A stretch of DNA of 61,360 nucleotides, counting the filler. It is 3 parts of 3 records of this genome, joined end to end, with 100 filler letters (N's around TTAATTAATTAA, not from the genome) between each part and the next. Parts side by side here need not be neighbours in the genome. Positions count along the whole stretch, not along the records: positions 1 to 28,703 come from SRR20825019_1433; 2 more parts are not named here. One strand, given 5' to 3'. The notes below the pieces were generated by a model. It was given only the letters and a program-made list of their open reading frames with translations, did no database searches and had not been told where the DNA came from. Shown piece after piece: positions 4,064-21,990 of this stretch. The position numbers and the translations under genes are program-made. The stretch's first letter is position 1; the number at the start of each line of letters is the position of its first letter.

Positions 4064-4066
4064 TTT

Positions 4067-4781: not shown

Positions 4782-4803
4782 ATATTTTACTTTACCTCAT
4801 CTT

Positions 4804-6453: not shown

Positions 6454-6719
6454 ACTATATTATTTGGTGTTTTGTCCATGGACAAAACGATTTGTTTAGC
6501 TGGTTGTGCACGCTAATATAACTTGAATTTTCCGAAATTAAGGGTGAAGCCTTAAACTCAACATTTTATTTTAAAACTGAAGTATTTGAAAAAGATGATG
6601 TGCTTATGACACTTGTAAAAACATAATGGATTGCTAACGATAATTTAAACTAAAAAGTAGGGTAGCTCTCTTAAAAAATTGAGTAATTTGAAACATAATT
6701 TTATTATTTGTAAACATTT

Positions 6720-8012
6720 ATGAATAAAAGTACGGTCATCAAGCGACCAGGGTTCGTGTTTGTGTTGCATGCTTCGCTTGCCGCTTTTGGCACCTACTTT
6801 TGTATGTACGCCTTTAGAAAGCCATTTTCCGTGGCCACTTTTGATGGGCTCTCCTTTATAGGTGTGGATTACAAAATACTTTTGGTGATTGCCCAGGTTT
6901 TGGGTTATGCACTTTCCAAATTTGTTGGGATAAAAATCATCTCGGAACTTAAGCCCAACCGAAGGTTACTTTACCTAATTTCACTTATAATACTTGCGGA
7001 AATTTCGCTCTTGCTCTTCGCATGGGTACCCGCACCGTACAATATCCCATTTATGTTCCTTAACGGTTTTCCTTTGGGAATGATATGGGGCATTGTGTTC
7101 TCTTATATTGAAGGACGTAGGTTTACCGATATTTTGGGAGTAGTCCTTTCCGCAAGTTTTATAGTATCCAGCGGAGTGGTAAAATCGGTGGGACTTTTTG
7201 TTATGAATTCTTGGGAGGTCAGTGAATTTTGGATGCCGTCCGTAACGGGGGCACTCTTCTTTGTGCCCCTTTTGATCTGTTCATATTTGTTGCAACGGGT
7301 GCCTCCGCCAACCCCCGAAGATATTGCCAACCGTACGGAGCGGATTCCAATGACGGCAGCCGATAGAAAAAGTTTAGTGAAAAAGTTCATGTTTCCGTTG
7401 CTTATTATTGTGCTGTTCTATACGTTTTTGACGGCCTTCCGGGATTTTCGGGACAATTTTGCCCGGGAGCTTTGGGACAGTATCGGTTATGAAGGTGATG
7501 CTTCCGTTTTTTCCACATCGGAAATCATTATCGCCGTCGTAGTGCTTTTGATAATCGGGACCATCTTTTATGTGAAAGATAACTTTAAAGCCTTGCTTAC
7601 CTATCATGTGCTACTGATTTTAGGAACTTTGGTTTTGGTGATCAGTACCATAATGTTTCAAATCGGGGTTTTGGACCCGTTTGTTTGGATGGTCTGTACA
7701 GGGTTTGGCCTTTATATTTGTTATGTACCGTTCAACTGTCTCTTTTTTGATCGCTTTATAGCCACTTTTAAGGTAAAAGGCAACTCAGGTTTTCTAATTT
7801 ACATTGCAGATGCCTTTGGGTACCTTGGAAGCATCTTGGTATTACTGTACAAGAATTTTGGGCAGGCAAATGTGTCGTGGCTGAACTTTTTTGTGTACGG
7901 AACGTACGCAGTTGCATTGATAGGTATTGTCAGTACATCGATATTATATGTGCACTTTGTGACCCGCCACAGATCGGAAGAATTTAATAAGCAATTGGAA
8001 TATGGACAATAA
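6720..8012 (+). CDS. DUF5690 family MFS-like membrane transporter (phosphonate-cluster associated)
   Basis: AAFGTYFCMYAFRKPF, LGMIWGIVFSYIEGRR, RDFRDNF motifs; ~12 TM helices; overlaps next gene. Confidence 0.75.
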   Translation: MNKSTVIKRPGFVFVLHASLAAFGTYFCMYAFRKPFSVATFDGLSFIGVDYKILLVIAQVLGYALSKFVGIKIISELKPNRRLLYLISLIILAEISLLLFAWVPAPYNIPFMFLNGFPLGMIWGIVFSYIEGRRFTDILGVVLSASFIVSSGVVKSVGLFVMNSWEVSEFWMPSVTGALFFVPLLICSYLLQRVPPPTPEDIANRTERIPMTAADRKSLVKKFMFPLLIIVLFYTFLTAFRDFRDNFARELWDSIGYEGDASVFSTSEIIIAVVVLLIIGTIFYVKDNFKALLTYHVLLILGTLVLVISTIMFQIGVLDPFVWMVCTGFGLYICYVPFNCLFFDRFIATFKVKGNSGFLIYIADAFGYLGSILVLLYKNFGQANVSWLNFFVYGTYAVALIGIVSTSILYVHFVTRHRSEEFNKQLEYGQ

Positions 8013-9174
8013 ATATGATGCCGTCATAGTAGGTGGGGGTGTTTTAGGGACTTTTCATGCCTACCATGCACTGGAATTGGGCCTAAAAGTCTGTTTGGTA
8101 GAAAAAGATATCTATCCCAAAGGAGCGACCACACAAAATTTTGGACAAGTCGTCCCTTCGGGCATGAATACCAAATGGCAGAAATTTGGAAGGGAAAGTC
8201 TTCGAATCTATAAAGATATACAGTCTCAGTTCGATATTAGCATCCGCCAGAACGGAACGGTGTATTTGGCATCCAATGAAGAGGAGGAACAGTTGCTGGT
8301 GGAGTTGAGAGCCATCAACAATGGGAACGATTACACATCAAAAATGCTCACCAAACAAGAATGTTTGGCCAATTACCCCGGACTTAGAAAGGAATATGTG
8401 ACGGCAGGTCTTTTTTTTCCACAAGAGGTCACGGTTGAGCCTAAAACCATGATCCATAAGCTCCAGAAATATCTGATGGAACAAAAAGGCTTGGATATCA
8501 AGTTTGATTTTCCCGTGGTTTCTTGTGAATCCGATGGGGAATGGGTGTCTGTTCAGAACACAAAAAATGAAACGGTTTTTGGCAAAAAAGTAATAATATG
8601 TAATGGCGCCGATTTTAAAAATCTGTATCCGGAAATCTTCGCAGACAGCGACCTGGAAGTTTCCAAATTACAGATGATGCAGACCAAGCCCCAAGAAAAC
8701 TATAACTTGAAAGGTTCGATTCTTACAGGTTGGTCCATTCGCAGGTACGAAGCATTTCATGAATGCCCATCCTTTGCTGGAATCAAGGAAAACGAGCCAA
8801 AGGACAGCCTTCAGAAAATATGGGGAGTACACATTCTTTTTAAACAAGCGATGGATGGTTCGGTGATTTTGGGTGATTCCCATCAATATGCCGATGCCAA
8901 CAGGATAGAGGATTTGGGTTACGACCTGGATATGGATATCGATAATTTTATGATAGAGGAAGCCAAAAAAATCATTGATCTTCCTACGTATCAAATTCAA
9001 AGAAGATGGTACGGAATGTACTCACAATGCAAGAACAGCGATATTTTTCAAAAAACAATTGACAACAATATTCATGTTGTAACAGGCATTGGTGGTAAGG
9101 GGATGACGGGAAGCGCCGGATTCTCGAAAAAAAATATCGCAACGATTTTTAACGCACAGAAAATCAAACTATGA
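8002..9174 (+). CDS. TIGR03364-type FAD-dependent oxidoreductase (putative aminophosphonate oxidase)
   Basis: GGGVLG dinucleotide-binding motif, GATTQNFGQ, GDSHQY, GIGGKGMT; phosphonate gene context. Confidence 0.8.
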   Translation: MDNKYDAVIVGGGVLGTFHAYHALELGLKVCLVEKDIYPKGATTQNFGQVVPSGMNTKWQKFGRESLRIYKDIQSQFDISIRQNGTVYLASNEEEEQLLVELRAINNGNDYTSKMLTKQECLANYPGLRKEYVTAGLFFPQEVTVEPKTMIHKLQKYLMEQKGLDIKFDFPVVSCESDGEWVSVQNTKNETVFGKKVIICNGADFKNLYPEIFADSDLEVSKLQMMQTKPQENYNLKGSILTGWSIRRYEAFHECPSFAGIKENEPKDSLQKIWGVHILFKQAMDGSVILGDSHQYADANRIEDLGYDLDMDIDNFMIEEAKKIIDLPTYQIQRRWYGMYSQCKNSDIFQKTIDNNIHVVTGIGGKGMTGSAGFSKKNIATIFNAQKIKL

Positions 9175-9845
9175 AAAAAATACAATTGGCCGTTTTTGAT
9201 ATGGCAGGCACCACAGTGAACGAGGACAATGTAGTCTATAAAACGGTTAGGGCCGCTTTGGCCAAGCATGGGGTAGAAGTTTCTTTGGATACCGTTCTGG
9301 AATTTGGCGCAGGTAAGGAAAAATTCAAGGCCATTGCAGATATATTGGAACAGACCAAGAATACATCAATTGATACCAATCTTGTATTTGAAGATTTCAA
9401 AGAAATGTTGGACGAAGCCTATTCCAATTTAGAAGTTACCTCCTATGATGGTGTAGAGGCATTTTTTCAACTATTAAAGTCCAAAGATGTCAAAGTAGTA
9501 TTGAACACTGGATATGACCAAAAAACCGCAAGTTCACTTTTGAGCAAACTGGGATGGGTCCAAGGGAATCAAATCGATGCTGTGATTACCGCCGACGATG
9601 TGGTAAATGGGAGACCTTCTTCGGAAATGATAGACAAGGCTATGGATATGTTCGGTATCAAAAACCCTGAAAATGTATTGAAAGCTGGTGACTCCATTAT
9701 CGATATTGAAGAGGGGAAAAATGCGAATTGTGGTTGGACCGTGGGTGTTTTGACCGGCGCCCAAACACGTGAACAGTTGTCGACTGCCCAACCGACGCTG
9801 ATATTGGATTCCTTGACCGATTTGGAAAAGGTATTGTTTTCTTGA
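9171..9845 (+). CDS. Phosphonatase-like HAD hydrolase (TIGR03351/PhnX-like)
   Basis: Motif I FDMAGT (cf. PhnX DWAGT), cap Lys in GAGKEK, LNTGY, GRP, KAGDSIIDIEEGKNA. Confidence 0.85.
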   Translation: MKKIQLAVFDMAGTTVNEDNVVYKTVRAALAKHGVEVSLDTVLEFGAGKEKFKAIADILEQTKNTSIDTNLVFEDFKEMLDEAYSNLEVTSYDGVEAFFQLLKSKDVKVVLNTGYDQKTASSLLSKLGWVQGNQIDAVITADDVVNGRPSSEMIDKAMDMFGIKNPENVLKAGDSIIDIEEGKNANCGWTVGVLTGAQTREQLSTAQPTLILDSLTDLEKVLFS

Positions 9846-10412
9846 TCAAATAAAGTAATAGACCACCAACATTTTAGAGGCGACTTTTCCTCTATTGATA
9901 GGCACATGGGGGATTCGACCGTCAAAAAATATAGAGTCCCCCTCTTTTAGGAGTACTTCTTGGTCCCCGATCTCGTAATAGCACTCTCCTGTTAAAATAT
10001 ACTTGAACTCAAAAGCATCGGTCACTACTTTTTCTCTTTTTGAATTGGGCTGTACTTCCAGAAGCACACTTTCAAAACCCACGGAATTCAATTGTTTACC
10101 GAAGATATAGTTGTAGGTAAACCCTATCGCCTCATCCTCTTTTTCGATAATGGACTGTTCGTTCTTACGGGTCACAATAAAATTTTGACCGATACCTTTC
10201 GGGATACCATCAAAAAAATCTGTCATCTGGGTACCCAATGCTTCCACAATTTTTAAAAATACGGGAAGAGATGGTATGGTTCTCCCATTTTCAATGCGCG
10301 AAATAAGACCTGCAGTTACACCGGCAGCTATCGCAACATCGTTTATGGTCTTTTTATTGTTCTTGCGGATTTGCTTTATTCTTTTCCCAATCCCTATGAG
10401 GTAATCTTCCAT
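9846..10412 (-). CDS. XRE family transcriptional regulator with cupin sensor domain
   Basis: N-terminal HTH (ISRIENGRTIPSL) and C-terminal cupin (GDSIFFDGRIPH). Confidence 0.9.
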   Translation of the reverse strand: MEDYLIGIGKRIKQIRKNNKKTINDVAIAAGVTAGLISRIENGRTIPSLPVFLKIVEALGTQMTDFFDGIPKGIGQNFIVTRKNEQSIIEKEDEAIGFTYNYIFGKQLNSVGFESVLLEVQPNSKREKVVTDAFEFKYILTGECYYEIGDQEVLLKEGDSIFFDGRIPHVPINRGKVASKMLVVYYFI

Positions 10413-10693
10413 TATTTATGGCCTCCTAAATTTTAGTATTTATAATATTTTTTGATAAATCAAGAATACTAAAAAAATACGATTAATCCATTAAACTAAT
10501 GGGGTATGTTGTAAAATCTGTCTTTTTGTCGATTTAGATAAATTGCATATTTGTAAATAATGTTTACATAACATTGAACGGTTTCTTTTAACCATTCCGT
10601 ATCATTTTTTTAATCTGTTTAAAGGTCTGCCTTAACTCTTGTGTTGGATATTTGTTGATAAATAATTAACCAATTTTTACAAATACTCAACAA

Positions 10694-13600
10694 ATGAAAA
10701 AATCGATTGTAGCTTTTTTACTTGCATTCACCGTAAGTATAATTGGCTATTCGCAAGTCACCTTTTCAGGAAAGGTATTAGACGAGAACAACGTGCCATT
10801 GCCGGGTGCATCGGTGGTTGTAAAGGGTGGGTCCACTGGTGTGGCGACCGACTTTGATGGAAATTTTGAAATTGAGCTCCCGCAAGGAGGAGAAATCTTG
10901 GTGGTATCCTATATAGGATATATCTCCCAGGATTTGGAAACAGCGGGCCAAACAAGCGCAACCGTTGTATTGCAGCCCGATTCGCAACAATTGGATGAAG
11001 TTGTGGTAACCGCTTTGGGTATTCAAAGGGAGACCAAGAAACTAGCGTATGCAGTACAAAAGGTTTCGGGAGAGGAAATTTCCGAGGCCAAAGAAACCAA
11101 CGTGGTCAACTCCCTTGCAGGTAAAATGGCCGGAGTTCAAATCACGGGAGGAAACTCGGGTGTTGGATCTTCTTCACAGATTATTATTCGTGGTGAAAAC
11201 TCGCTTAACCCAAGTCCAAATGCCAACTCACCATTATTTGTAGTGGACGGTATTCCTATCAACAACAATGTGAACAACACCGGTAGTGAAGGTAACATGG
11301 GGGTTGACTATGGTAATGGCGCCATGGACATCAACCCCGACGATGTAGAGACCATGACCGTGCTTAAAGGACCAAATGCAACGGCGCTTTATGGTTCCAG
11401 AGGAGCCAATGGTGTTGTGCTTATTACCACTAAATCAGGTAAGGGAAGTAAAGGGATTGGAGTTTCCTATACCCACAATTCCACTTTCGAAGATCTTTTG
11501 ACACTCCCAAAATATCAAAACCGCTATGGACAAGGTTCGGGAGGTCAGTTTGCTTTTAATGATGGGGGACAAAACCGTTCCTTGACAGGTGGGATAAACG
11601 ACCATGTGGACGAAAGTTGGGGGCCTGCCCTGAACGGACAATTGATTCCACAGCACGATAGCCCTACCACTAGCGGTCTGCGAGCCGGTGACGTTCATGT
11701 TAGGCCAAGAAATCCTGATGGAACATTTGCTGATGAGATTATTGCAACGCCTTTTTCTCCACAGCCAAACAATATCGATGACTTTTTTAGAACAGGCTTC
11801 ACCATGAGCAATAACATTGCGTTGACGGGAGCTAACGAAGATGGTAACTTTAGGGTGTCCTTCACCGATTTGCAAAGTGAGAGTGTTATCCCAAACTCCA
11901 ACTTTAAAAGAAGATCGTACCAAGTCAACGGGTCATACAATCTTACCGATTGGTTAAAGGTGACCGGTTCCATGAACTACATCAACTCGAACTCCCGCAA
12001 CCGTCCCAATAACTCTTACGGAACAGAAAACGTAATGTATCTGTGGATTTGGTTCGGTCGTCATATCAACATGAACAATTTAAGGGATTATTGGCAGCCA
12101 GGTTTGGAAGGTGTGCAGCAGTACAATTACAACTATAACTATCACGACAACCCTTTCTTTACCGTGTACGAGAACACCAATGCCTTTAACAAGGACCGTG
12201 TAATCACCAACCTAAGGGCGGATATGACCTTGGCAAAAGGCTTGAGCCTAATGTTGCGTTCCGGTTTTGACTATTCCAGTGAACTTGACATGAGAAAAAG
12301 GGCATATTCAACGCAACGTTTCCCGAACGGTCAGTACAGGGAGGACTTTATTTATGCCTACGAGCAAAACACTGATTTTCTTTTTGCGTATAACACTGAG
12401 CTGAACCAAGATTTTGATTTTGGAGTGTCCTTCGGAGGTAACCATCGTTCCGCTAAAAATAGATATCAACGAATAAGTGCCAACTCATTGTCTATTCCTG
12501 GAATCTATAACTTTGGAAACGCGGCCGAGCCGTTGACGCAGAGTGATTATGACGGTAAATTCACCGTAAACAGTTTGTATGCCTTCTCCAATTTGGCCTA
12601 TAAAGATTATGCTTTCTTGGATGTTACCGCTCGTAACGATTGGTCTTCCACATTACCTGATGGAAACAATAGTTATTTCTATCCATCCGTTGGTTTGAGT
12701 TTCATTCTTTCTGATATGTTCCAAATGCCGGAAGCCATCAGCTTTGCTAAAGTTAGAGGTGGTTGGGCCAGTGTTGGTAACGATACCGACCCCTATAACT
12801 TGGCCGCGACCTTTGGTTTTGGAAATACCTTCAACGGATATTCAAGGGCCTATTCCCCATCCGAATTGAAACTTGCCGATTTAAAACCGGAACGTACCAA
12901 CTCATTCGAAGTAGGTGCCGATGTTCGGTTCTTCGGAAACCGATTGGGATTGGATGTGGCCGCATATAAGTCGGTAACGAATAACCAGATTCTTTCTTTA
13001 CCAGTATCCAACACCTCTGGATTTAGTTCCAGGGTCATCAATGCCGGTGAGGTAGAGAATAAAGGTTTGGAAATTACCTTGACGGCAACACCGCTTAGAA
13101 CTGACAACTTTAGCTGGGATACCAACATCAACTTTACCACCAACCGTGGTGAGGTAAAGGAACTTACGGATGGGTTAACGCAATATTTGGTGAAGGAAAA
13201 TTACCTTCAAGTTGTTGCAGAGGTCGGCGAACGTATGGGCGACCTTTACGGAACAGGTTTCGAACAGGTGACCGATCAAAACAGTCCTTACTACGGACAA
13301 TGGATCATTGATGGAGATTCAGGTCTGCCCATAAGAAGCAACGAACTGCGAAACCTTGGCAATTACAACCCGGACTTTATGGTTGGTTTCCAAAACAGTT
13401 TCAAGTACAAAAATCTTCGTTTTGGATTCCTTTTCGATTGGAGACAAGGTGGTGTTTATCACTCAAGAACCGTTGCCATTGGTGGTACCACAGGGATGCT
13501 GGACTTCACCGTTCCAGGTCGTGAAACAGGCATTGTGGCACAAGGTGTTATAGATGATGGAAATGGCAATTATACGCCTAACACGGTCAATGTGGCAGCA

Positions 13601-13903: not shown

Positions 13904-13924
13904 ACAAAGAATTTAAGACAAAGA

Positions 13925-15376
13925 ATGATGAAAACATCAAACTTCATAACATCCATCTTATTTGCAGGAACCGCATTGGTTTCGTGTACCGATAATTTTG
14001 AGAGTATCAACTCCAACCCCAACGCCCCGGAACAAGTTAGTGCCAACTTGCTAACCTCCACCGTAACTTCGGAAATCACAAGAACGTTGACACAGGAAGG
14101 GTATAGCGATGGAAATACCATTACCCAGCTCATGGCAAAAAACAACTTTCCCGGTTTTAGCCAATTTGATTGGGGAGATCAAGGCATGTGGAATTTCTTT
14201 TACAACTACTTGCCCGAAATCAACGATATTCTGGAAATCTCCCGTGCGGAAGGGTCACAAAATGCAACCTACGAAGGAATTGCCCTGACATTGAGAGCAC
14301 TTTCTTTTGCCAACCTTACCGATCTCTATGGCCACGTACCGTACACCGAGGCCATGGCAGGTGAATCCGAAGGAATTTTTACACCGGTTTACGATGATCA
14401 AGAAACCGTTTACAATGGAGTCCTTCAAGATTTGGCAGATGCCGATGCCGCATTGGCAAAAGGGGAGGCGATTACCGGATCCACCGGTGACGTTATTTAC
14501 GATGGAGATGCTTCCAAATGGAGAAAACTGGCGAATTCCTTGCGTCTTCGTTACCTGATGAGAATTTCCAAACAAAGGGATGTCTCGGCTGAAATGCAGG
14601 CGATTGTAAGTGCAGGCAACTACATCAATTCTAATGATGACAACGCCACATTAACCTATAGTGGAACTTCAAATACCGATTCATGGCCAGAAAGCACAGG
14701 TCGTATCGGTGGTTTTGATGAAAAGAGTCTTTGCACCACCTTGTTGGGCTATTTTGAAGAATTCAATGATCCTCGATTGGATATTTGGTTCGATCGCAAC
14801 AGTGACGGAGAATGGGTGGGAATTCCCATTGGTCTCAACCAAGATAATGCCCGTGCCTATGATGATGCCAATAGTCCAAGTCGCTTGGATGTAGAACTGT
14901 TCTACTTCTCTTCCACGGCAGCGGAAGCATTTATCATGAAAAACTCCGAAGTACAGTTCATTCTGGCAGAGGCTGCCGAAAGAGGATTCATTGCCGGTAG
15001 TGCTGCCGATTACTACAATGCAGGAATCAGGGCAAGCTTGGCCTATTGGGGCGTAGCGGATGATGATATTGATGCATACTTGGCCCAGCCATCTGTGCAA
15101 TATGATGGTTCTCTGGAATTGCTTTTAACTCAAAAGACCATAGCACTTTGGAACGTGGATTACCAAGGATGGATGGATTACAGAAGAACAGGAATTCCTG
15201 CCTTGGAGACTGGTCAGGACGACCTTAATGGAGGACGCTATCCAGTTCGTTTCCTTTATCCATCGTCCGAACAGACATTGAATACGGCAAACTATGAAGC
15301 AGCCGTACAAGCCATGGGCGGGGAAGGAGACAACATCAATACACCTAGCTGGTGGGAAACCGGAACCAGATATTAA
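13925..15376 (+). CDS. susD: SusD/RagB family substrate-binding lipoprotein
   Basis: Lipobox LVSC; TDLYGHVPYTEA, WRKLANSLRLR, WMDYRRTG, RFLYP; directly after susC. Confidence 0.92.
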   Translation: MMKTSNFITSILFAGTALVSCTDNFESINSNPNAPEQVSANLLTSTVTSEITRTLTQEGYSDGNTITQLMAKNNFPGFSQFDWGDQGMWNFFYNYLPEINDILEISRAEGSQNATYEGIALTLRALSFANLTDLYGHVPYTEAMAGESEGIFTPVYDDQETVYNGVLQDLADADAALAKGEAITGSTGDVIYDGDASKWRKLANSLRLRYLMRISKQRDVSAEMQAIVSAGNYINSNDDNATLTYSGTSNTDSWPESTGRIGGFDEKSLCTTLLGYFEEFNDPRLDIWFDRNSDGEWVGIPIGLNQDNARAYDDANSPSRLDVELFYFSSTAAEAFIMKNSEVQFILAEAAERGFIAGSAADYYNAGIRASLAYWGVADDDIDAYLAQPSVQYDGSLELLLTQKTIALWNVDYQGWMDYRRTGIPALETGQDDLNGGRYPVRFLYPSSEQTLNTANYEAAVQAMGGEGDNINTPSWWETGTRY

Positions 15377-15408
15377 ACGATTGAAAAATAGTCTTTTAAA
15401 CAAAATAT

Positions 15409-15438
15409 GGTTGCCCTGTTTTTCAGGGCAGCCTTTAT
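15409..15438 (+). terminator. Intra-operon hairpin after susD (terminator or mRNA stabiliser)
   Basis: GGTTGCCCTG-TTTTT-CAGGGCAGCC followed by TTTAT. Confidence 0.6.
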
Positions 15439-15455
15439 TGTTAAAAATAAATAAG

Positions 15456-17111
15456 ATGTCTAATAAACTACTGTTACTTATTTTGTTGCTTGGTTTGATG
15501 GTATCGTGCTCAAAAAAAGTAGGTCGGTCCACCAATATTGAGCACGTCGTCATCATTGGAATAGACGGTATGAGTCCCGATGGGATTCAAAAGGCCAAAA
15601 CACCAACCTTGGATTCCATGATCCGGAATGGGGCCGCAACCATGCATGCACGGTCCGTACTCCCATCAAGTTCCAGTCCCAATTGGGCCAGTATGATCAT
15701 GGGAGCCGATACAGAACAACATGGGGTAACCTCCAACGGTTGGGAAAAGTTCGACCACCAATTACCACCGGTGGTCGTTACCAAAAATGGGACATTTCCA
15801 ACCATATTTACACTGTTTAAAGACCAACAGCCAGAAGCACATGTGGGTGCCATTTACGACTGGGACGGTTTTGGACGTTTGTTCGAAAAATCTGATGTTG
15901 ATTTTGATATCGACGGAAATCATGAGGATAACACCACCCAAGCAGCGGTAAATTACATCAAAGAACATAGACCAAAATTCACCTTTGTGCATTTGGATCA
16001 CGTGGATCATGCGGGACACTCCCAAGGACACGGAAGCCCTGATTATTACAAATCGGTGGAGAAAGCAGATTCCTTGATAGCTACAATCGTTAATTCAACC
16101 AAGGATGCAGGAATTTTTGAAAAAACCATGTTCATTATATCCGCAGACCACGGAGGATTGGGTTTTGGCCACGGAGGCGAAAGCCTTGCCGAAATGGAAA
16201 TTCCCTTTATAATGTATGGTGCGGGCATCAAAAAAGGCTATAAAATCGAAGAGACCGTTTACCAATACGATAATGCCCCAACGGTTGCCTACGCCATGGG
16301 ATTGCAAATGCCCCAAGCTTGGATAGGCAGACCTATAAAAGGGGCATTTATCGGAAATGAGGCTCCAAAACTTGTCTATAAACGAAAGGAGCAGATAACC
16401 CAACCAAAAATCCTCCCGGACGCAGGCTATTTTGAACCAGCAGGAGGGGTTTTCAAAGCGGATTCGGTAGCCGTCGTTATGCAAAACCCGAATAACGTTG
16501 GTGAGATTCGCTATACCATTGGCAATAATGTGCCTACTTTGGAAAACAGCCAAGTCTATCAGGATACTTTTTATCTAAACGAAACCGTAATCATCAAGGC
16601 CGGCATCTTTCAGAATGATCAATTGGTGAGTACGGTTGCCGAGGGCAATTTTAGGATTGTTTCAAAAACAAAACAAGACCCTGTCAAATTTGAGGTTTTT
16701 GAAGTAAGCGGTATCGAAAAGCTTCCGGATTTCACTACCTTAAATCCGGCGCATGAAGGTTACGTAACAGAATTCTCCCATAAGCAAGCACTCTCCGAAG
16801 ATATGCCGCAAGAGCAAGTAGCCGTTGTTTTTGAAAGTTATTTGGAAGTGACCGAAGCAGGAACTTATAATTTTTTCACCAATAGTGATGATGGCAGTAA
16901 ACTTTATGTGAACGGTACCGAGATAGTGAATAACGACGGAGACCATGGGGTTATGGAACGCAGCGGATCGTTGGAACTATCCGAAGGAAGGCATCTAGTT
17001 CGGGTCGAATTTTTTAATGGGGGTGGGGGCTATCATTTGGATGTCAAATATTCAGGTCCCAACACGCCGAAACAGATTATTCCAGCGGGCAGACTGTTTA
17101 GAGAAAAATAA
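15456..17111 (+). CDS. Alkaline-phosphatase-superfamily (NPP-like) lipoprotein with FN3-associated and PA14 domains
   Basis: Lipobox MVSC; IGIDGMS, SSPNWAS, DHVDHAGH, SADHG metal motifs; PA14 motif SDDGSKLYVNG..NNDGDH; start at MSNKLL. Confidence 0.85.
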   Translation: MSNKLLLLILLLGLMVSCSKKVGRSTNIEHVVIIGIDGMSPDGIQKAKTPTLDSMIRNGAATMHARSVLPSSSSPNWASMIMGADTEQHGVTSNGWEKFDHQLPPVVVTKNGTFPTIFTLFKDQQPEAHVGAIYDWDGFGRLFEKSDVDFDIDGNHEDNTTQAAVNYIKEHRPKFTFVHLDHVDHAGHSQGHGSPDYYKSVEKADSLIATIVNSTKDAGIFEKTMFIISADHGGLGFGHGGESLAEMEIPFIMYGAGIKKGYKIEETVYQYDNAPTVAYAMGLQMPQAWIGRPIKGAFIGNEAPKLVYKRKEQITQPKILPDAGYFEPAGGVFKADSVAVVMQNPNNVGEIRYTIGNNVPTLENSQVYQDTFYLNETVIIKAGIFQNDQLVSTVAEGNFRIVSKTKQDPVKFEVFEVSGIEKLPDFTTLNPAHEGYVTEFSHKQALSEDMPQEQVAVVFESYLEVTEAGTYNFFTNSDDGSKLYVNGTEIVNNDGDHGVMERSGSLELSEGRHLVRVEFFNGGGGYHLDVKYSGPNTPKQIIPAGRLFREK

Positions 17112-17117
17112 TAAAGA

Positions 17118-18485
17118 ATGAATCAAATGCGCGATAAGCACAACCCAGAATCTGTTGTGGAAGGCGACATCAACCTGACTCCTGCGAGGGGAAAATGGTT
17201 GCAGAACGAAGTGAGCGATGAAACCAAGGAGCTACTGGAAAAGGACGCCAAGTATTTTATGCATCAATCCATGTCGACACCTTGTTTGGACGTGCTCCAA
17301 AATTGTGAAGGTTCGCACATGATAAGTGTGTCGGGCAAGAAATACCTCGATTTTCACGGAAACAATGTGCACCAAATCGGGTTTTCCCACCCAAAACTGG
17401 TCGCTCGACTAACAGAGCAGCTTCAAAATTTGACTTTTTCCACAAGACGCTACGCCAATGCAACGGCTGTAAAGTTTGCGGAGAAATTGACCTCTTACAC
17501 TCCAAAAGGTTTTAACCGCATCTTATTGACCCCAAACGGAAGCTCGGCCATCGGCATTGCCCTAAAATTGGCCAGGGCCATCACGGGCAAGCACAAGGTG
17601 GTCTCTTTTTGGGATTCGTTCCACGGTGCATCTCTGGATGCCATCAGCGTTGGGGGCGAAGCAGTTTTTCAGGAGCATATGGGGCCATTAATGCCCGGTG
17701 TGGAGCGTATTCCTCCCCCAATAACCTATCGCGGCATATTTGAGGGAAACGAGGATAAAGCCTTGGAGTATTTGCAGTATGTTTTGGAGAAAGACCATCA
17801 AATTGGAGCTTTTTTAGCGGAGACCATTCGCAACACCGATGTGCAGATTCCATCAAAAAAATTCTGGAAAGCAGCTAGGGAGCTTTGCACCAAACATGGT
17901 GTTTTGTTGATTTTGGATGAAATCCCCATCGCTTTTGGAAGAACGGGAACTATGTTCGCCTATGAACTTTTCGACATTGAGCCAGACATTCTCTGCTTGG
18001 GCAAAGGATTGGGAGGTGGAATTATTCCTCAAGCTGCCATTGTTACCCGGGAAGAATACAACAAGTTCGGACACATTTCCCTTGGTCATTACACCCACGA
18101 AAAAAGTCCTTTGGGGACTATGGCCGGTCTTACACTTCTGGAGGTTCTGGAAGAGGAAAACATTTTGCAAAAAGTGAAGGAAGATGAAGAATTCATGAGA
18201 AAGGCCCTATACAAAATGCATCGAAAATATTCCTTGATCGGGGATGTGCGGGGTGTTGGACTTTTATGGGGCATTGAACTGGTGACCGATAGAACCTCTA
18301 AAGAAAAAGCAACGGCCGAAGCCGAAGAAATTATGTACGAGTGCCTAAAACAAGGATTAAGTTTTAAAGTTTCCAAAGGAAACGTACTGCAACTGTCACC
18401 TCCATTGACCATAACCAGGGAAGAACTGGAAAAAGCTTTTGAAATATTAAACTCTGCCTTTTTAAAAACAAACCATATCGCCTAA
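17118..18485 (+). CDS. pbfA: PbfA-like (R)-1-hydroxy-2-aminoethylphosphonate ammonia-lyase (class III PLP fold)
   Basis: EGDINLTPAR, HQSMSTPCLD, DFHGNNVHQ, WDSFHGASLDAISVGGEA, IRNTDVQ, LGHYTHEKSP blocks as recalled for PbfA; PLP Lys in LCLGKGLGGG. Confidence 0.82.
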   Translation: MNQMRDKHNPESVVEGDINLTPARGKWLQNEVSDETKELLEKDAKYFMHQSMSTPCLDVLQNCEGSHMISVSGKKYLDFHGNNVHQIGFSHPKLVARLTEQLQNLTFSTRRYANATAVKFAEKLTSYTPKGFNRILLTPNGSSAIGIALKLARAITGKHKVVSFWDSFHGASLDAISVGGEAVFQEHMGPLMPGVERIPPPITYRGIFEGNEDKALEYLQYVLEKDHQIGAFLAETIRNTDVQIPSKKFWKAARELCTKHGVLLILDEIPIAFGRTGTMFAYELFDIEPDILCLGKGLGGGIIPQAAIVTREEYNKFGHISLGHYTHEKSPLGTMAGLTLLEVLEEENILQKVKEDEEFMRKALYKMHRKYSLIGDVRGVGLLWGIELVTDRTSKEKATAEAEEIMYECLKQGLSFKVSKGNVLQLSPPLTITREELEKAFEILNSAFLKTNHIA

Positions 18486-20074
18486 TGAAAAAAACCAACC
18501 AGTTACTCTTGCTATTTTGTCTGGGTCTGATGGAGCTTACCGCCCAGACCGAGCCCCAAATTTTAGTGCAACCCTATCTTCAAGATGCCGAACCGAACTC
18601 CATTGTAATCATGTGGGAGACCACTAGCGGAGAAGAAAGCACTGTTGAGTGGGGAACCACGGAAAAATTGGGTAAAAAAACCTCAGGGAAAGCTGAGGAT
18701 ATCAATTTCTCTGAATCTCGGGTGCATATTGTAAAATTGGAAGGCCTCAAACGCTTTACCGAGTATTATTATCGGGTGAAAACCGGTAAGGCCAAATCGG
18801 ATATATATCAATTCAGGACCCCACCCTTTTCAAGTGACGAGGAATCGTTCAACATTGTTGCCATGAGTGATATGCAATACGATAGCCAGCATCCGAACAA
18901 ATTTTCCGAAATCGTGAACCAAGGCATTCTACAGTATTTGGAAAAGGAGCACGGTGGCAAGTTGCCGGACAATCTGGCTATGGTGATGATACCCGGGGAT
19001 TTGGTTTCTTCGGGCAGTAAATATTACCAATGGAAAGAACACTTCTTCGACCCGGCACAAAAACTCTTTGCTGAGGTGCCCGTATATCCAGTGTTGGGCA
19101 ACCATGAGAAAAATTCTGTTTTCTATTTCAAATATTTCAGCCTTCCGGAAAATGGAACGCCCGCCTTTGCCGAACATTGGTGGTATAAGGATTATGGAAA
19201 CACAAGAATCATCGGGTTGAATTCCAACGAGGGTTACCGCGACCTTCGTGAACAATATGAATGGTTGGAACAAGTTTTGGCCGATACCGAAAAGAACGAT
19301 GACATTGATTTTGTGTTCGCTCAGCTGCACCATCCCCACAAATCTGAACTTTGGATTCCGGGCGAGGAAGAATCCACAGGGAAGGTGGTTAAAATGTTGG
19401 AGGCCTTTTCAACCAAAACAGGAAAGCCCAGCGTTCATTTTTTTGGACACACCCATGGCTATTCAAGAGGGCAATCTAGAGACCACAAACACTTGTGGAT
19501 CAATGTGGCCTCAGCTGGGGGAGCCATCGACAATTGGGGCGAGTTCGAAGGCAGGGACTATGACGAATTCACCGTTACACAGGACGAATACGGATTTGTT
19601 ATGGTCGAAATCGACGGTAACCGGAGCGACCCCAAATTCACTATCAAAAGAATCAGTCAAGGGAACAATGTGAAGTCAAGACAAAATGAACTTCGCGACA
19701 GTATTACCATCTGGCGATTGGAGAAGAAACCCGATGCTCCAGCCGTAGTTTTTCCAACTAAAAATGAAAAAGTACTGGAAGAATTTGTCACCTTGAAGGC
19801 CGGAGAGTTTTCAAGTCCGCTCGGTGATGCTTTCCATGCGGCAGCACATTGGCAAGTTTCCCAAACCCAAGATTTTGAAAAGTTGGATTTGGACAGCTGG
19901 AAACAGTTCGAAAACTGGTACTACAAGGAAAATCGTCAAAAAGAGGACGATTTGACCGATGAAAAAACCAAAAGATTACAATCCAATACCACCTATTATT
20001 GGAGGGTTCGGTACCGAGACCAAAACTTGAATTGGAGTGATTGGTCCGAAACAGCATCATTTAAAACAAAGTAA
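18485..20074 (+). CDS. Exported purple-acid-phosphatase-like metallophosphoesterase with FN3 domains
   Basis: Signal peptide; SDMQ, GDLV, GNHE, HHPH, GHTH calcineurin-like motifs; C-terminal YYWRVRYRD FN3. Confidence 0.88.
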   Translation: MKKTNQLLLLFCLGLMELTAQTEPQILVQPYLQDAEPNSIVIMWETTSGEESTVEWGTTEKLGKKTSGKAEDINFSESRVHIVKLEGLKRFTEYYYRVKTGKAKSDIYQFRTPPFSSDEESFNIVAMSDMQYDSQHPNKFSEIVNQGILQYLEKEHGGKLPDNLAMVMIPGDLVSSGSKYYQWKEHFFDPAQKLFAEVPVYPVLGNHEKNSVFYFKYFSLPENGTPAFAEHWWYKDYGNTRIIGLNSNEGYRDLREQYEWLEQVLADTEKNDDIDFVFAQLHHPHKSELWIPGEEESTGKVVKMLEAFSTKTGKPSVHFFGHTHGYSRGQSRDHKHLWINVASAGGAIDNWGEFEGRDYDEFTVTQDEYGFVMVEIDGNRSDPKFTIKRISQGNNVKSRQNELRDSITIWRLEKKPDAPAVVFPTKNEKVLEEFVTLKAGEFSSPLGDAFHAAAHWQVSQTQDFEKLDLDSWKQFENWYYKENRQKEDDLTDEKTKRLQSNTTYYWRVRYRDQNLNWSDWSETASFKTK

Positions 20075-20078
20075 GAAA

Positions 20079-21152
20079 ATGAAAAATAGAGTCTTGTTTT
20101 TGATGATTGCCACTGTGGCAATGTTCAGGGTAAATGCCCAAAATAACGATACCAAGATAATTTTGATAACGTTGGACGGTTTCCGTTGGCAGGAATTATT
20201 TACAGGAGCCGATTCCCTTTTGATTGGTAATAAGGATTATGTTCACGAACCCGAAATGTTGAAAAAAGCTTTCTGGAGAGACACCCCATCTGAAAGAAGA
20301 GAAGCGTTGTTGCCCTTTTTCTGGAGTCAAGTGGTAAAAATGGGCCAGATTCATGGAAATCGAAAGTTGGAAAGCAAAGTAGATTTGACCAATTCCATGT
20401 GGTTCTCTTACCCGGGTTACAACGAAATTTTGACAGGAACTGCAGATGATAAAAACATCCGAAGTAATGACAAAATACCGAACCCCAACACAACAGTTTT
20501 AGAGCTTTACAATAACGCCGCCGAAGGAAAGGGCAAAGTCGCTGCCTTTGGTAGTTGGGATGTGTTTCCATCCATCATAAATGAAGAGCGGTCAGGAGTT
20601 CCCGTCAATGCGGGTTTTGAGTCAGCTATTGGAAACCTGAATGAAAGGGAAAAGTTTCTCAACCAATTGCAGAACCAGATACCCAGTCCATGGGGCTCGG
20701 TCCGGTTGGATGCATTTACGCATCATTATGCTTTGGAGCACATGAAAAAGGAACATCCAAAATTGGTTTTCATTTCCTACGGAGAAACCGATGATTTTGC
20801 CCATGATGGGGATTATCAAGCCTATTTAAAATCGGCCCACAATACCGATGGGTTGATCAAGGAGGTATGGGAGTTTACCCAACAAGATGATTTTTATAAG
20901 GACCAGACCGTGTTTTTGATCACTACGGACCATGGGCGTGGAACAGAGCCCTTGGATACTTGGAGAAGCCATGGCAGCGACATCAATGGGGCAGGCTCCG
21001 TTTGGATGATTGCTTTTGGAAAGAATGTTGATTCCAAAGGAGAAGTAAAGGAGGAAGAACAATTATACTCCAACCAGATTGCACCGACCATTTTAAGGAT
21101 ATTGGGAATACCCTTTCCAAAGGAAATCGAGGGAAAACCCATGAAATTATAA
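20079..21152 (+). CDS. Exported alkaline-phosphatase-superfamily metalloenzyme
   Basis: Signal peptide; ITLDGFRWQE, FSYPGYNE, TDDFAH, TTDHGRG motifs. Confidence 0.82.
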   Translation: MKNRVLFLMIATVAMFRVNAQNNDTKIILITLDGFRWQELFTGADSLLIGNKDYVHEPEMLKKAFWRDTPSERREALLPFFWSQVVKMGQIHGNRKLESKVDLTNSMWFSYPGYNEILTGTADDKNIRSNDKIPNPNTTVLELYNNAAEGKGKVAAFGSWDVFPSIINEERSGVPVNAGFESAIGNLNEREKFLNQLQNQIPSPWGSVRLDAFTHHYALEHMKKEHPKLVFISYGETDDFAHDGDYQAYLKSAHNTDGLIKEVWEFTQQDDFYKDQTVFLITTDHGRGTEPLDTWRSHGSDINGAGSVWMIAFGKNVDSKGEVKEEEQLYSNQIAPTILRILGIPFPKEIEGKPMKL

Positions 21153-21197
21153 GTTTAAGTTCGTTTGATTCAGTTTATTAGTTTGCGTAACCGCAGT

Positions 21198-21230
21198 AGA
21201 CCCGTGCCATTGGTACGGGTCTTGTTTTTT
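21198..21230 (+). terminator. Rho-independent terminator ending the susC operon
   Basis: AGACCCGTGCCA-T-TGGTACGGGTCT followed by TGTTTTTT. Confidence 0.85.
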
Positions 21231-21294
21231 GGTATCTCCCAAGAAGTTTCGTTTTTACTAAAATGGTTACCTTAGAGGAACGTATTTTTATCAC

Positions 21295-21927: not shown

Positions 21928-21930
21928 GTT

Positions 21931-21975: not shown

Positions 21976-21990
21976 CATAAAACCAATTGC

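Follow-up and report, generated by a model that had tools for sequence, protein, structure and literature searches.

An aminophosphonate gene cluster was found in a marine flavobacterium, in which SusCD and secreted phosphoesterases stand beside enzymes that break the C-P bond. It lies within the 61,360 nucleotides of DNA that were analysed (hereafter the window), and we hold, with moderate confidence, that it represents a SusCD locus of the Pus type (phosphate utilisation system) with a specialisation for aminophosphonates. The left part runs in the order DUF5690 membrane protein, PbfD-type FAD oxidase, PhnX-like HAD hydrolase and divergent XRE-cupin regulator. The right part consists of SusC, SusD, a hairpin, an NPP-PA14 lipoprotein, PbfA, a purple-acid-phosphatase-like (PAP-like) enzyme, a small alkaline-phosphatase-superfamily (AP-like) enzyme and a terminator. 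The genes overlap or abut, and with the hairpin after susD and the terminator after the last gene this indicates operon structure; the DUF5690-PbfD-PhnX-like set and the SusCD-to-AP-like set are separate operons. All ten genes listed in the first-pass annotation were recovered in place by profile searches, each matching its named family. A domain search of the locus detected no glycoside hydrolase or CAZyme, in agreement with the earlier description of a susC-susD pair with no such enzymes behind it. The identical gene set and order recur in many Flavobacteriaceae genera; therefore, the arrangement is not due to chance.

Cytoplasmic enzymes of C-P cleavage

The PbfD-type FAD oxidase (8002..9174, + strand) scored 413.3 bits on TIGR03364 (cut-off 285.1), and its first 11 nt overlap the end of the DUF5690 gene. 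It is expected from its family to oxidise 2-aminoethylphosphonate (AEP) or N-methyl-AEP to phosphonoacetaldehyde. PbfD1 of A. baumannii belongs to TIGR03364, and both PbfD1 and PbfD2 convert M1AEP and AEP to PAA by oxidation, with no oxidation of non-phosphonate analogues (PMC10590968). PbfD and PbfA activities are already published (PMC10590968; PMC8154272). PbfA itself (17118..18485, +) is a PLP enzyme that scored 714.8 on the equivalog model NF049939, exceeding the cut-off of 525 by 190 bits; the generic model NF004755 gave a score nearly as high (702.5). It shares 55-59% identity with Vibrio proteins, and in the one Vibrio locus annotated (L072) this homologue is flanked by a PhnW-type (Aminotran_5) gene on one side and a canonical phnX (330 bits on TIGR01422) on the other.

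The PhnX-like HAD hydrolase (9171..9845, +) exceeded the TIGR03351 cut-off by just 2.2 bits (221.1 vs 218.9). This model is graded merely 'hypothetical equivalog', and a characterised member was not found in the literature searched. The protein stayed below the cut-off of the canonical PhnX model TIGR01422 (103.6 vs 220), and its best solved relatives were B. cereus phosphonatase chains (E 9e-16). The catalytic Asp D10, the Ala A12 at position Asp+2 and the cap-domain Lys K51 were invariant in 53/53 rows of an alignment that takes in canonical PhnX. Phosphatases need a second Asp at Asp+2, whereas the PhnX-like enzyme, a candidate phosphonoacetaldehyde hydrolase, carries Ala there like canonical phosphonatases. 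Neither a signal peptide nor a lipobox was found in the protein sequences of PbfA, PbfD and the PhnX-like enzyme, nor a hydrophobic segment in PbfA. As the first-pass annotation had proposed, a cytoplasmic route in which PbfD and PbfA would supply phosphonoacetaldehyde to the PhnX-like enzyme is well supported by family scores and catalytic residues.

The closest available genome, 100% complete by markers, was searched with profiles for further C-P routes. Canonical PhnX, PhnW and PhnA gave no match over cut-off, and PhnJ and PEP mutase gave no match. By this search, the phosphonoacetaldehyde that PbfA and PbfD form can leave by no route there except the PhnX-like enzyme, and the cell makes no phosphonates itself.

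Surface, secreted and membrane proteins and their control

SusC (10694..13903, +) is a SusC/RagA-type TonB-dependent transporter (TIGR04056, 684.2 vs 368.25) with the SusC signature and a signal peptide. The SusD-like surface lipoprotein (13925..15376, +; SusD-like_2, 342.1 bits) has a lipobox ending in Cys21. The SusC barrel and SusD are exchanged as a cassette inside one genus, which is new here. The NPP-type phosphodiesterase (15453..17111, +) contains Phosphodiest (103.1), Fn3_assoc/CHB_HEX_C and PA14 (48.7) domains and, like SusD, a lipobox. Its start is most likely 15453 rather than 15294, because a lipoprotein signal ending LMVSC follows 15453 and a hairpin (15409..15433, +; 10-bp stem, 7 G-C pairs, T-rich tail) lies between susD and that start. 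This hairpin is a possible attenuator. The NPP metal-site and Ser/Asn motif residues were invariant (42/42), and we propose NPP-PA14 as a new candidate phosphonate-ester hydrolase.

The PAP-like metallophosphoesterase (18485..20074, +) combines Pur_ac_phosph_N, Metallophos and a C-terminal Ig domain. It has a type-I signal peptide, as do orthologues, and its five metallophosphoesterase motifs were invariant in 33/33 sequences. The AP-like enzyme (20079..21152, +, most likely start 20079; Metalloenzyme/Sulfatase/Phosphodiest), which databases auto-name 'phosphoglyceromutase', also has a type-I signal, and D33, S110, D238, H242, D284 and H285 were invariant (20/20). The operon closes with a terminator-like hairpin (21198..21222, +; 11-bp stem, 7 G-C pairs, T run). 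DUF5690 (6720..8012, +; PF18943, 563.7 bits) is a polytopic membrane protein with about 10-12 hydrophobic segments and a central loop. No detectable relation was found to solved transporters or to one MFS_1 protein; its linkage suggests a candidate inner-membrane aminophosphonate importer.

The regulator (9846..10412, - strand; HTH_19, HTH_3, Cupin_2) is divergent from susC. Loci of Flavobacteriaceae, Dyadobacter and Chryseolinea have the XRE-cupin gene next to the cluster, and it was present in 43/55 loci with full flanks (among the best 80 of 589 PbfA loci). The 9-mer TATTTGTAA occurs at 6705-6713 in the promoter region of the DUF5690-pbfD-phnX-like operon (6454..6719, +), and at 10548-10556 (+) and 10677-10685 (-) in the divergent control region (10413..10693). 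Three of its four copies in 61 kb thus fall in the two promoter regions of the locus; 0.51 copies were expected, and 1/100 shuffles reached four. Relative to susC, the two control-region boxes sit near -145 and -18 and keep these positions across genera; both together were seen in 28/31 loci with a divergent XRE gene vs 2/11 without, suggesting that they are operators.

Linkage across genomes

The locus survey covered the best 80 of 589 PbfA loci, ranked by similarity to the window's PbfA rather than drawn at random. Among these 80, SusC, SusD and NPP lay directly upstream of PbfA in 38/63 Bacteroidota loci with enough flank, and NPP in 53/66 Bacteroidota loci; neither arrangement was found in the 10 proteobacterial loci. 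Synteny of SusCD across Bacteroidota, one of the checks set out beforehand, was borne out by these counts. Counting against the proposed specialisation, ten of the 63 loci had neither NPP nor SusCD within counting distance, although in one of them (L021) both were present further upstream, and in the two annotated Chitinophagaceae/Sphingobacteriales loci (L053 and L055), PbfA homologues stood isolated amid unrelated genes. We also compared a family sample of 301 genomes in which each genus is represented once, apart from the window's genus with two. PbfA occurred in 20 genomes and DUF5690 in 26; 18 had both, and in 16 of these the two genes shared a contig, about 12 kb or less apart.

Proposed route, rival readings and published loci

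Localisation signals and conserved linkage suggest the following for capture, ester hydrolysis, import and regulation. SusD would bind an aminophosphonate-bearing compound, be it a glycan or lipid-headgroup phosphonate ester or perhaps the free acid itself, for TonB-dependent import by SusC. The outer-membrane-anchored NPP-PA14 would cut the P-O ester to give AEP, N-methyl-AEP or 1-hydroxy-AEP (HAEP), and the periplasmic PAP-like and AP-superfamily enzymes may act likewise on further esters or remove accompanying phosphate esters. The free aminophosphonate would enter the cytoplasm via DUF5690. AEP and N-methyl-AEP would be oxidised by PbfD and (R)-HAEP deaminated by PbfA, both giving phosphonoacetaldehyde, which the PhnX-like enzyme would split into acetaldehyde and phosphate, with both divergent operons under XRE-cupin control. 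The complete phosphonate-ester route of the first-pass annotation holds in its gene inventory, its cytoplasmic part and its conserved SusCD linkage; dedication to esters, headgroup release by the three secreted esterases and import by DUF5690 are read from linkage, and an action of SusCD and the secreted esterases on phosphonate esters mainly from the tight NPP-PbfA-DUF5690 association. Any preference of the three esterases for phosphonate esters, as against ordinary phosphodiesters or monoesters, is putative.

It is possible, though we think it rather unlikely, that the locus is composite. SusCD and the esterases would then serve the ordinary phosphate esters of nucleic-acid fragments, lipid headgroups and sugar phosphates; alternatively, SusCD would take up dilute free aminophosphonates. 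DUF5690, PbfD, PhnX-like and PbfA would form a separate, co-regulated module for free AEP, N-methyl-AEP and HAEP, with no phosphonate ester involved. The characterised PusCD1 and PusCD2 bind inositol phosphate and GroPI, which are small phosphorylated ligands, and have phosphodiesterase partners; the PAP-like and AP-superfamily enzymes belong to families typical of phosphomonoesterases. A phosphonate monoester needs one hydrolysis, so three esterases exceed what the aminophosphonate model needs. The two gene sets, in separate operons here, are arranged differently with respect to one another in Leeuwenhoekiella and Flavobacterium sp. Dyadobacter clusters (11 loci) tell on both sides: their lack of PAP and AP-like genes counts against the aminophosphonate-ester model, but NPP stays with PbfA and DUF5690 even though SusCD is missing too, which argues against a composite. 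The same holds for Prolixibacteraceae, where NPP again keeps company with PbfA and DUF5690 although SusCD, PAP and the AP-like gene are missing; NPP-PA14 there shares a cluster with an aminotransferase of the PhnW type, an MFS gene and canonical PhnX. Moreover, 17 of the 19 genomes with long-form NPP-PA14 in the 301-genome sample were PbfA-positive, though 281/301 lack PbfA, and short NPP paralogues adjoin DUF5690 in three further genomes.

That the system handles no phosphonates, with the PLP and HAD enzymes acting on phosphate-ester amines (e.g. phosphoethanolamine set free from lipid headgroups) and an ordinary amine as the substrate of the FAD enzyme, seems improbable. Class-III aminotransferase relatives do include ethanolamine-phosphate phospho-lyase (6tor, 168.8 bits), and the NF004755 score and TIGR03351 grade leave room for it; however, the margin over the PbfA cut-off, the identity to Vibrio proteins with the L072 neighbourhood, the Ala at Asp+2 and the reported inactivity of PbfD enzymes on non-phosphonate analogues all speak against it. 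Least credible is a glycan (e.g. laminarin) transporter incidentally beside phosphorus genes. In a Maribacter forsetii study, the top up-regulated SusCD pair of laminarin-grown cells, probably of the window's type, was placed in the laminarin pathway, with alkaline phosphatase, FAD oxidoreductase and phosphonatase-like hydrolase genes as neighbours (PMC11345257). However, the pair was equally 'on' in glucose and 'off' only in a carbon-limited, lower-density control, so a response to nutrient limitation may fit better than laminarin induction. The pair is a putative orthologue, no CAZyme appears beside it or in the window locus, and the SusCD-NPP-PbfA order recurs in the survey.

With the aminophosphonate-specialised Pus-type locus as the preferred reading, its place among known loci was considered. 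In Flavobacterium, PusCD loci induced by low phosphate adjoin phosphonate genes ('phosphonate-degrading enzymes') according to Lidbury's group (bioRxiv 10.1101/719427; PMC8115612), with phnX, dao, dgdA and gpmI1 as neighbours in the figure legend, and a 2026 preprint states that aminophosphonate genes often adjoin pusCD-like loci. The kind of locus is thus less new than the first-pass annotation suggests; the narrower point made there, that no characterised SusCD locus is tied to C-P catabolism, stands because the published loci are all uncharacterised in the literature searched. The window locus is a new marine example of these already reported SusCD-phosphonate loci.

Gene content and layout of the locus

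The ORF listing, together with Pfam and NCBIfam scans, bore out every gene that the first-pass annotation had named. The locus opens with a DUF5690 gene (6720-8012, +; Pfam, 563.7 bits), a gene for a TIGR03364 FAD oxidoreductase of the PbfD type (8002-9174, +; 413.3 bits versus a cut-off of 285.1) and a gene for a TIGR03351 "phosphonatase-like hydrolase", PhnX-like (9171-9845, +), the last two overlapping by 4 nt. A gene for an XRE helix-turn-helix and cupin protein (9846-10412, -; Pfam) is followed by susC (10694-13903, +; TIGR04056, 684.2 versus 368.25; SusC signature TIGR04057, 59.4 versus 46.2) and, after 21 nt, by susD (13925-15376, +; SusD-like_2, 342.1 bits; lipobox). A 10-bp hairpin (15409-15433) lies between susD and the gene of an NPP-type phosphodiesterase with Fn3_assoc/CHB_HEX_C and PA14 modules, NPP-PA14 (15453-17111, +; Phosphodiest, PF01663, 103.1 bits versus a gathering threshold of 23). 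The genes of PbfA (17118-18485, +), a purple-acid-phosphatase-like (PAP-like) metallophosphoesterase (18485-20074, +; Pfam) and a small protein of the alkaline-phosphatase superfamily, AP-like (20079-21152, +), follow, and the operon ends in an 11-bp terminator-like hairpin (21198-21222). Genes of the locus abut or overlap. The gene inventory of the first-pass annotation stood; two gene starts were corrected: that of NPP is most likely 15453, which gives a lipoprotein signal ending in LMVSC, and that of the last gene is most likely 20079, with which a type-I signal is present.

Lipoboxes were found on SusD and NPP and type-I signal peptides on the PAP-like and AP-like enzymes, the orthologues of these two enzymes carrying type-I signals likewise. 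No hydrophobic segment was detected in PbfA, PbfD or the PhnX-like protein. From the signals and segments of its products, the locus covers the outer membrane, periplasm, inner membrane and cytoplasm.

Two candidates for membership were rejected. The sodium:solute symporter (4804-6453, -; NF007790, 772.7 bits) is not kept beside the cluster outside the genus; it shares the interval 3065-6453 with a LytTR-type two-component pair (His_kinase and response regulator), which is not conserved beside the cluster either. The CRP/SulP/rhodanese genes downstream are not conserved there outside the genus, CRP and SulP following the locus only in Flagellimonas/Muricauda. They belong to a sulfur-related stretch (21295-28499) that encodes, besides the CRP-family regulator and the SulP permease, a rhodanese, a fusion of metallo-beta-lactamase with rhodanese, and a sulfite-oxidase-type molybdopterin oxidoreductase.

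A block of about 20 kb within 28704-50900 has 54-60% G+C versus 39-47% in its flanks and holds a complete dcw cluster with the gene order of E. coli (mraW, ftsI, murE, murF, mraY, murD, ftsW, murG, murC, ddl, ftsQ, ftsA, ftsZ, lpxC, an M23 peptidase gene and a secA fragment of 236 aa). The closest genome compared, G001, matches window positions 26000-28703 at 100%, the match ending there, and a public contig of 28,704 bases aligns co-linearly from window position 6400 onward, with matching coordinates. The block has the appearance of an insertion of foreign DNA or of a chimeric join; the phosphonate locus lies wholly in the first part. At 50910-61105 is a second, unrelated SusCD system with an ECF sigma factor, a FecR anti-sigma factor, SusC (1175 aa), SusD_RagB, a DUF285 protein and a 655-aa protein without a Pfam match.

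Four copies of the 9-mer TATTTGTAA were counted in the 61-kb window versus 0.51 expected, a number reached in 1 of 100 shuffles, and three of them sit in the two promoter regions of the locus. Two boxes 5′ of susC, at about -145 and -18, are position-conserved across genera; both were present together in 28/31 loci with a divergent XRE gene versus 2/11 without this divergence. These boxes upstream of susC are candidate operators. A sigma-70 promoter scan was uninformative (37 sites versus 29.2 expected), the model being unsuited to Bacteroidota. Among related systems, phosphate depletion induces the PusCD pairs of Flavobacterium, as published exoproteomes show, and the accessible figure legend lists phnX, dao, dgdA and gpmI1 among their neighbours (bioRxiv 10.1101/719427). 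In the available part of another report (PMC11345257), a Maribacter forsetii SusCD pair neighbours an alkaline phosphatase, an FAD oxidoreductase and a "phosphonatase-like hydrolase"; it was on in laminarin- and glucose-grown cultures and off in a carbon-limited control, and its authors read it as a laminarin transporter. We suspect that this pair, the putative counterpart of the window SusCD, reflects a response to nutrient limitation.

Cytoplasmic C-P chemistry and a candidate importer

PbfA is described as converting (R)-1-hydroxy-2-aminoethylphosphonate (HAEP) into phosphonoacetaldehyde in the accessible text of one report (PMC8154272). According to the available portion of another, TIGR03364-type PbfD enzymes oxidize 2-aminoethylphosphonate (AEP) and N-methyl-AEP to the same aldehyde, PbfD2 taking the place of PhnW in a PhnW-less organism (PMC10590968). 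All four models proposed as a check in the first-pass annotation (TIGR03364, TIGR03351, DUF5690 and PbfA) matched, TIGR03351 only marginally. The window PbfA exceeded the equivalog cut-off of NF049939 (714.8 versus 525; the generic model NF004755 gave 702.5) and was 55-59% identical to the PbfA homologues of six Vibrio loci (L072, L075, L078, L081, L082 and L085). In L072, the homologue is flanked by a PhnW-type Aminotran_5 gene and phnX (TIGR01422, 330 bits). By this comparison, which used Vibrio proteins other than the characterized V. splendidus PbfA, the window PbfA appears orthologous to the Vibrio phnW-phnX-cluster enzyme. PbfD passed its curated cut-off and is syntenic with a phosphonatase-like hydrolase; the homologues in L039, L048, L058 and L061 scored 416-470.

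The window HAD hydrolase fell outside the PhnX equivalog (TIGR01422, 103.6 versus a cut-off of 220), whereas the canonical PhnX of L069 (Prolixibacteraceae) and L072 scored 325-330. With TIGR03351 it was only marginally over the cut-off (221.1 versus 218.9); five Flavobacteriaceae homologues scored 224-238, and two from Dyadobacter, at 195-199, were under it. D10, A12 (Asp+2) and K51 of the cap domain were unchanged in 53/53 aligned rows, one protein being entered twice and canonical PhnX included. In Bacillus cereus phosphonatase, these residues correspond to the nucleophile Asp, the Ala at Asp+2 and the Schiff-base Lys of the cap domain. The best solved relatives of the window HAD are phosphonatases, and the aligned region matches the B. 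cereus phosphonatase chains.

Genome-wide searches refer to G001, which is 100% complete by markers and has 59% of the window's sampled words in common. In this genome, the best PhnX match was the HAD of the same cluster (97.4 bits), the best PhnW match reached 40 bits versus a cut-off of 400.8, the best PhnA match 38.1 versus 407.55, and PhnJ and PEP mutase gave no match. Because no alternative C-P enzyme scored over its cut-off, the aldehyde from PbfA and PbfD would have no other outlet in G001. As PEP mutase was not found, the organism is probably no phosphonate maker; recycling of an endogenous phosphonolipid was therefore rejected, and the locus would scavenge foreign compounds.

DUF5690, the candidate inner-membrane aminophosphonate importer, has about 10-12 hydrophobic segments and a central hydrophilic loop, compatible with a 6+6 carrier. 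Even at E 10 it gave no MFS match in Pfam, the DUF5690 family alone being matched, and a profile search found no solved-structure relative at E 10. Aligned with one MFS_1 protein by hhalign, it gave a probability of 0.9%. An MFS_1 protein stands in its stead in the Prolixibacteraceae cluster.

Conservation of the core and exchange of the outer-membrane cassette

The window PbfA has 589 relatives (one genome per species). The best 80 of these, a set biased toward the window's relatives, were taken with 10-kb flanks, onto which the window proteins were mapped by tblastn, and comprised 70 Bacteroidota and 10 Gammaproteobacteria loci. Within this set, NPP lies directly 5′ of PbfA in 53 of the 66 Bacteroidota loci whose upstream flank spans 3.6 kb or more. 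Synteny across Bacteroidetes, which the first-pass annotation had suggested looking for, was observed: SusC, SusD and NPP accompany PbfA in 38 of the 63 Bacteroidota loci whose upstream flank reaches 8.5 kb or more. In a further 14, NPP occurs but SusCD does not; one (Chryseolinea) shows the reverse, and the remaining 10 show neither, although L021, counted among these, holds both farther upstream. NPP and SusCD were found at none of the 10 proteobacterial loci. Such counts are a description rather than a test, related genomes being non-independent. At L007 (Flagellimonas abyssi strain W52), all twelve proteins tested were 96-100% identical. Genera in which the full set was present include Flagellimonas/Muricauda, Saonia, Mangrovimonas, Ulvibacterium, Cellulophaga, Maribacter, Zobellia, Leeuwenhoekiella, Sediminicola, Confluentibacter and a Flavobacterium.

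Among nine loci covered by Pfam and NCBIfam annotation, three variants were seen. That of Dyadobacter has XRE-cupin, HAD, PbfD, NPP-PA14, PbfA and DUF5690, without SusCD, PAP or the AP-like gene. That of Prolixibacteraceae joins NPP-PA14 and PbfA to a PhnW-type aminotransferase, canonical PhnX and an MFS_1 carrier, and the textbook Vibrio variant consists of a PhnW-type gene, PbfA, PhnX and an ABC system. In a family sample of 301 genomes from 300 genera, PbfA was present in 20, DUF5690 in 26 and both in 18, and in 16 of these 18 a single contig carries the two, no more than about 12 kb apart. Long-form NPP-PA14 (a frame of at least 540 aa with at least 52% identity) was found in 19/301 genomes, 17 of them PbfA-positive; in three further genomes, short NPP paralogues adjoin DUF5690. 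Judged from these sequences, the conserved core is XRE-cupin, HAD, PbfD, NPP, PbfA and DUF5690, and SusCD, PAP and AP-like are a flavobacterial extension.

Several further features were noted at these loci. Many related loci hold an extra gene of about 420 aa between NPP-PA14 and PbfA, as at L008:8734-10008, L023:8713-9969 and L051:8713-9969 and in the 1.2 kb that separates NPP from PbfA in L012, L014 and L017. Its only match is a weak one to the metallo-beta-lactamase fold (Lactamase_B, 25.5 bits), and it may encode a further phosphodiesterase. The window is without this gene, NPP ending at 17111 and PbfA starting at 17118. Besides PbfA, the Dyadobacter, Prolixibacteraceae and Chryseolinea clusters carry a paralogue of the same class-III aminotransferase fold with about 40% identity to it (L058:6910-8262, L069:8536-9900 and L071:2971-4317); those of the first two are over the PbfA cut-off as well (638 and 619 bits), and the paralogue may have a substrate different from that of PbfA. 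In L053 and L055 (Chitinophagaceae/Sphingobacteriales), PbfA homologues of 61-63% identity stand beside a DnaJ-domain gene, and the annotation shows no phosphonate genes within 10 kb; tblastn found no cluster genes in L049, L052, L054, L056, L062 or L074. The AP-like gene of a metagenome-assembled Muricauda (L008:12950-14026) has an internal stop codon. Of three sequencing runs labelled RNA or possibly RNA that were compared with the window, one yielded no match and two yielded pieces of 27-114-kb contigs, behaving like DNA from a related strain. From 18664 onward (interval 18664-21300), the window matches a 27.6-kb contig from one of these two runs at 95-99%, and sequence upstream is unmatched at that threshold. 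This mismatch would be consistent with the susCD-NPP-pbfA part diverging between strains, or a filter may have dropped records.

Grouped at an identity of 60% or more, the SusD proteins at the locus position (41 rows) form eight clusters, three of them within Flagellimonas/Muricauda. Between SusD types, SusD is 27-49%, SusC 32-64% and PbfA 61-90% identical. In the SusD tree (40 rows), the 14 Flagellimonas rows split into three well-supported clades, one with Leeuwenhoekiella/Zobellia, one with Saonia and one with Maribacter/Cellulophaga. Monophyly of the Flagellimonas SusD, a group named after the identity clusters had been seen, was rejected (log-likelihood lower by 1198, p-AU 7.5e-6). In the PbfA tree of the same rows, Flagellimonas forms one side of a branch (SH-aLRT 83), compatible with monophyly. 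At the DNA level, L012 and L014 align colinearly with the window at 77-78% over 8404-11454; over 11455-15536 no similarity was found save scraps of 150-190 nt, and similarity resumes at 15537. These breakpoints place the barrel of SusC (starting near residue 254), SusD, the hairpin and the signal peptide of NPP inside the replaced piece. SusC residues 1-250 are 69-71% identical versus 48-49% for the rest. Thus, the N-terminal plug region of SusC stays with the locus while the barrel swaps, and the SusC barrel and SusD are replaced as a cassette within Flagellimonas/Muricauda (loci L008-L021). Polyphyly of PusD was already noted by Lidbury et al. (PMC8115612). Our literature searches, which were not aimed at this topic, met no earlier report of within-genus replacement with mapped boundaries.

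Secreted esterases and the proposed cleavage of phosphonate esters

The two-metal site and the Ser-Ser-x-Asn motif of NPP-PA14 were invariant in 42/42 orthologues (D38, S74, S75, N77, D182, H183, D185, H186, H189, D232, H233 and H240), and its putative nucleophile was assigned from the motif. Its non-catalytic PA14 and CHB_HEX_C modules, whose usual role is carbohydrate binding, are the sole carbohydrate-type modules in the locus. Metallophosphoesterases bind metal through five motifs (D, GDxx, GNH[DE], H and GHxH); in the PAP-like enzyme, SD129, GD172, GNHE205-208, H282 and GHTH321-324 were invariant in 33/33, and solved PAPs are distant (E 1e-6). The AP-like enzyme matched the protein atlas only in automatically named "phosphoglyceromutase" clusters, and its weak matches among solved structures fall on the C-terminal metal site of cofactor-independent phosphoglycerate mutase.

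With classical PULs, the locus shares a SusC/SusD pair at the head of the operon (a SusC-signature TonB-dependent transporter with a SusD-family lipoprotein directly after it), an outer-membrane lipoprotein enzyme with PA14 and CHB_HEX_C modules, periplasmic enzymes, an inner-membrane carrier and a local regulator. Unlike them, it contains no CAZyme in 6720-21152 (glycoside hydrolase, lyase or carbohydrate esterase; Pfam/NCBIfam scan) and so falls outside the canonical PUL. Its regulator is XRE-cupin rather than a hybrid two-component, SusR or ECF/anti-sigma system, and its proposed end products would be phosphate, ammonia or methylamine, and acetaldehyde. Its gene content is that by which PUS are defined, a SusCD-like pair with phosphoesterases and organophosphorus transporters replacing CAZymes (PMC8115612). 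The PusCD systems of Lidbury et al. (bioRxiv 10.1101/719427; PMC8115612) likewise combine SusCD, secreted phosphoesterases, inner-membrane organophosphorus transporters and "phosphonate-degrading enzymes" without CAZymes. In the accessible legend, phnX, dao, dgdA and gpmI1 are older names of PhnX-like, PbfD, PbfA and AP-like; dialkylglycine decarboxylase is among the closest solved relatives of PbfA, and AP-like was auto-named phosphoglyceromutase. Flavobacterium sp. DSR3-2 (L048) has all ten window genes. Among PUS, only PusCD1 and PusCD2 (phosphatidylinositol/GroPI) are characterized; phosphonate-linked pusCD forms receive mention only (Connolly et al. 2026 preprint 10.64898/2026.09.03.749221), and "phosphonatases" are named beside pusCD4, 5 and 6 (bioRxiv 10.1101/719427). 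PUS reports concern plant-associated strains, whereas the window and most relatives are from marine Flavobacteriaceae. The window locus is a marine member of an already published, so far uncharacterized PusCD kind. The kind being in print, its novelty was overstated in the first-pass annotation; the narrower statement made there, that no characterized SusCD locus is known to be tied to C-P catabolism, still stands, as the literature searched, with most subscription journals and supplements outside it, yielded no characterized phosphonate-linked member.

Like the hydrolytic AEP pathways (Vibrio PhnW-PbfA-PhnX and Mariniblastus fucicola PbfD2-PhnX, as far as the accessible texts describe them; PMC8154272, PMC10590968), the window pathway would pass phosphonoacetaldehyde to a HAD hydrolase, and it shares the lack of PhnW with M. 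fucicola by the search in G001. It differs in having a TIGR03351-type hydrolase in place of canonical PhnX, DUF5690 as candidate importer in place of the ABC system of Vibrio L072, and a connection to SusCD and three secreted esterases. AepXVW, AepP and AepSTU (PMC8316502) are dedicated aminophosphonate importers encoded beside catabolic genes, as DUF5690 would be; DUF5690, in contrast, is neither an ABC binding-protein system nor recognizable as kin of MFS_1/GlpT. PEH/PMH of Burkholderia caryophylli and Rhizobium leguminosarum, as cited in the available text of PMC5649143, are alkaline-phosphatase-superfamily enzymes that hydrolyze phosphodiesters as well as phosphonate monoesters, and the same chemistry is proposed here for NPP-PA14. 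By the title of Jonas et al. 2008 cited there, PMH belongs to the sulfatase branch with a formylglycine nucleophile, whereas NPP-PA14 is of the NPP branch, with its invariant Ser-Ser-x-Asn and PA14 module; the best match to solved PMH 4upk was weak (30.8 bits).

The main argument that NPP shares the compound class of PbfA is the tight NPP-PbfA-DUF5690 linkage, which spans three orders and outlasts changes of hydrolase type, importer and outer-membrane system. Natural HAEP sources, namely an Acanthamoeba phosphonoglycan and Bdellovibrio sphingophosphonolipids, are named in the accessible part of PMC8154272. Given this linkage, these sources, the carbohydrate-type modules and the invariant active site, NPP-PA14 is proposed as a phosphonate monoester hydrolase, which would cut phosphonate monoesters to give free aminophosphonate. 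Three esterases, however, exceed the need of one ester bond, and F. johnsoniae PusCD1 binds a small free ligand, so that the window SusCD could simply import free aminophosphonate. The locus might then be a composite one for phosphorus scavenging, with esterases and SusCD serving ordinary phosphate esters or SusCD taking up free aminophosphonate, a reading that we consider rather unlikely given the linkage of NPP to PbfA.

Natural aminophosphonate is mostly ester-bound to lipids or glycans. The catabolic pathways of a 2023 review (PMC10574752) begin at the free acid, without mention of "phosphonoglycan", "phosphonate ester" or "Bacteroid", and a 2017 study (PMC5649143) only postulated alkaline-phosphatase-like enzymes cutting the phosphonate ester bond of marine polysaccharides. 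Because the locus combines NPP-PA14 as a candidate enzyme with SusCD for capture and a complete downstream route, all in bacteria that can be cultivated, the question of phosphonate-ester cleavage becomes testable. With a swap of SusC barrel and SusD in a fixed operon, surface specificity can change while metabolism is untouched. Returning to the proposed monoester hydrolase, we tentatively suggest that NPP-PA14 may be the missing "first enzyme" of natural phosphonate mineralization, dedicated to freeing AEP, N-methyl-AEP and HAEP from phosphonoglycans and phosphonolipid headgroups, and that the exchangeable cassette may retarget a conserved catabolic core to different conjugates. In the available part of a global marine survey (PMC9381506), Flavobacteriales figure only as possible methylphosphonate producers, and G001 carries no PhnW, PhnX, PhnA or PhnJ match over cut-off. 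As the hydrolase is far under the PhnX cut-off and PhnW is lacking, surveys by phnW, phnX, phnA and phnJ counts would miss such organisms, and marine Flavobacteriaceae may thus be unrecognized consumers of conjugated, high-molecular-weight phosphonates.
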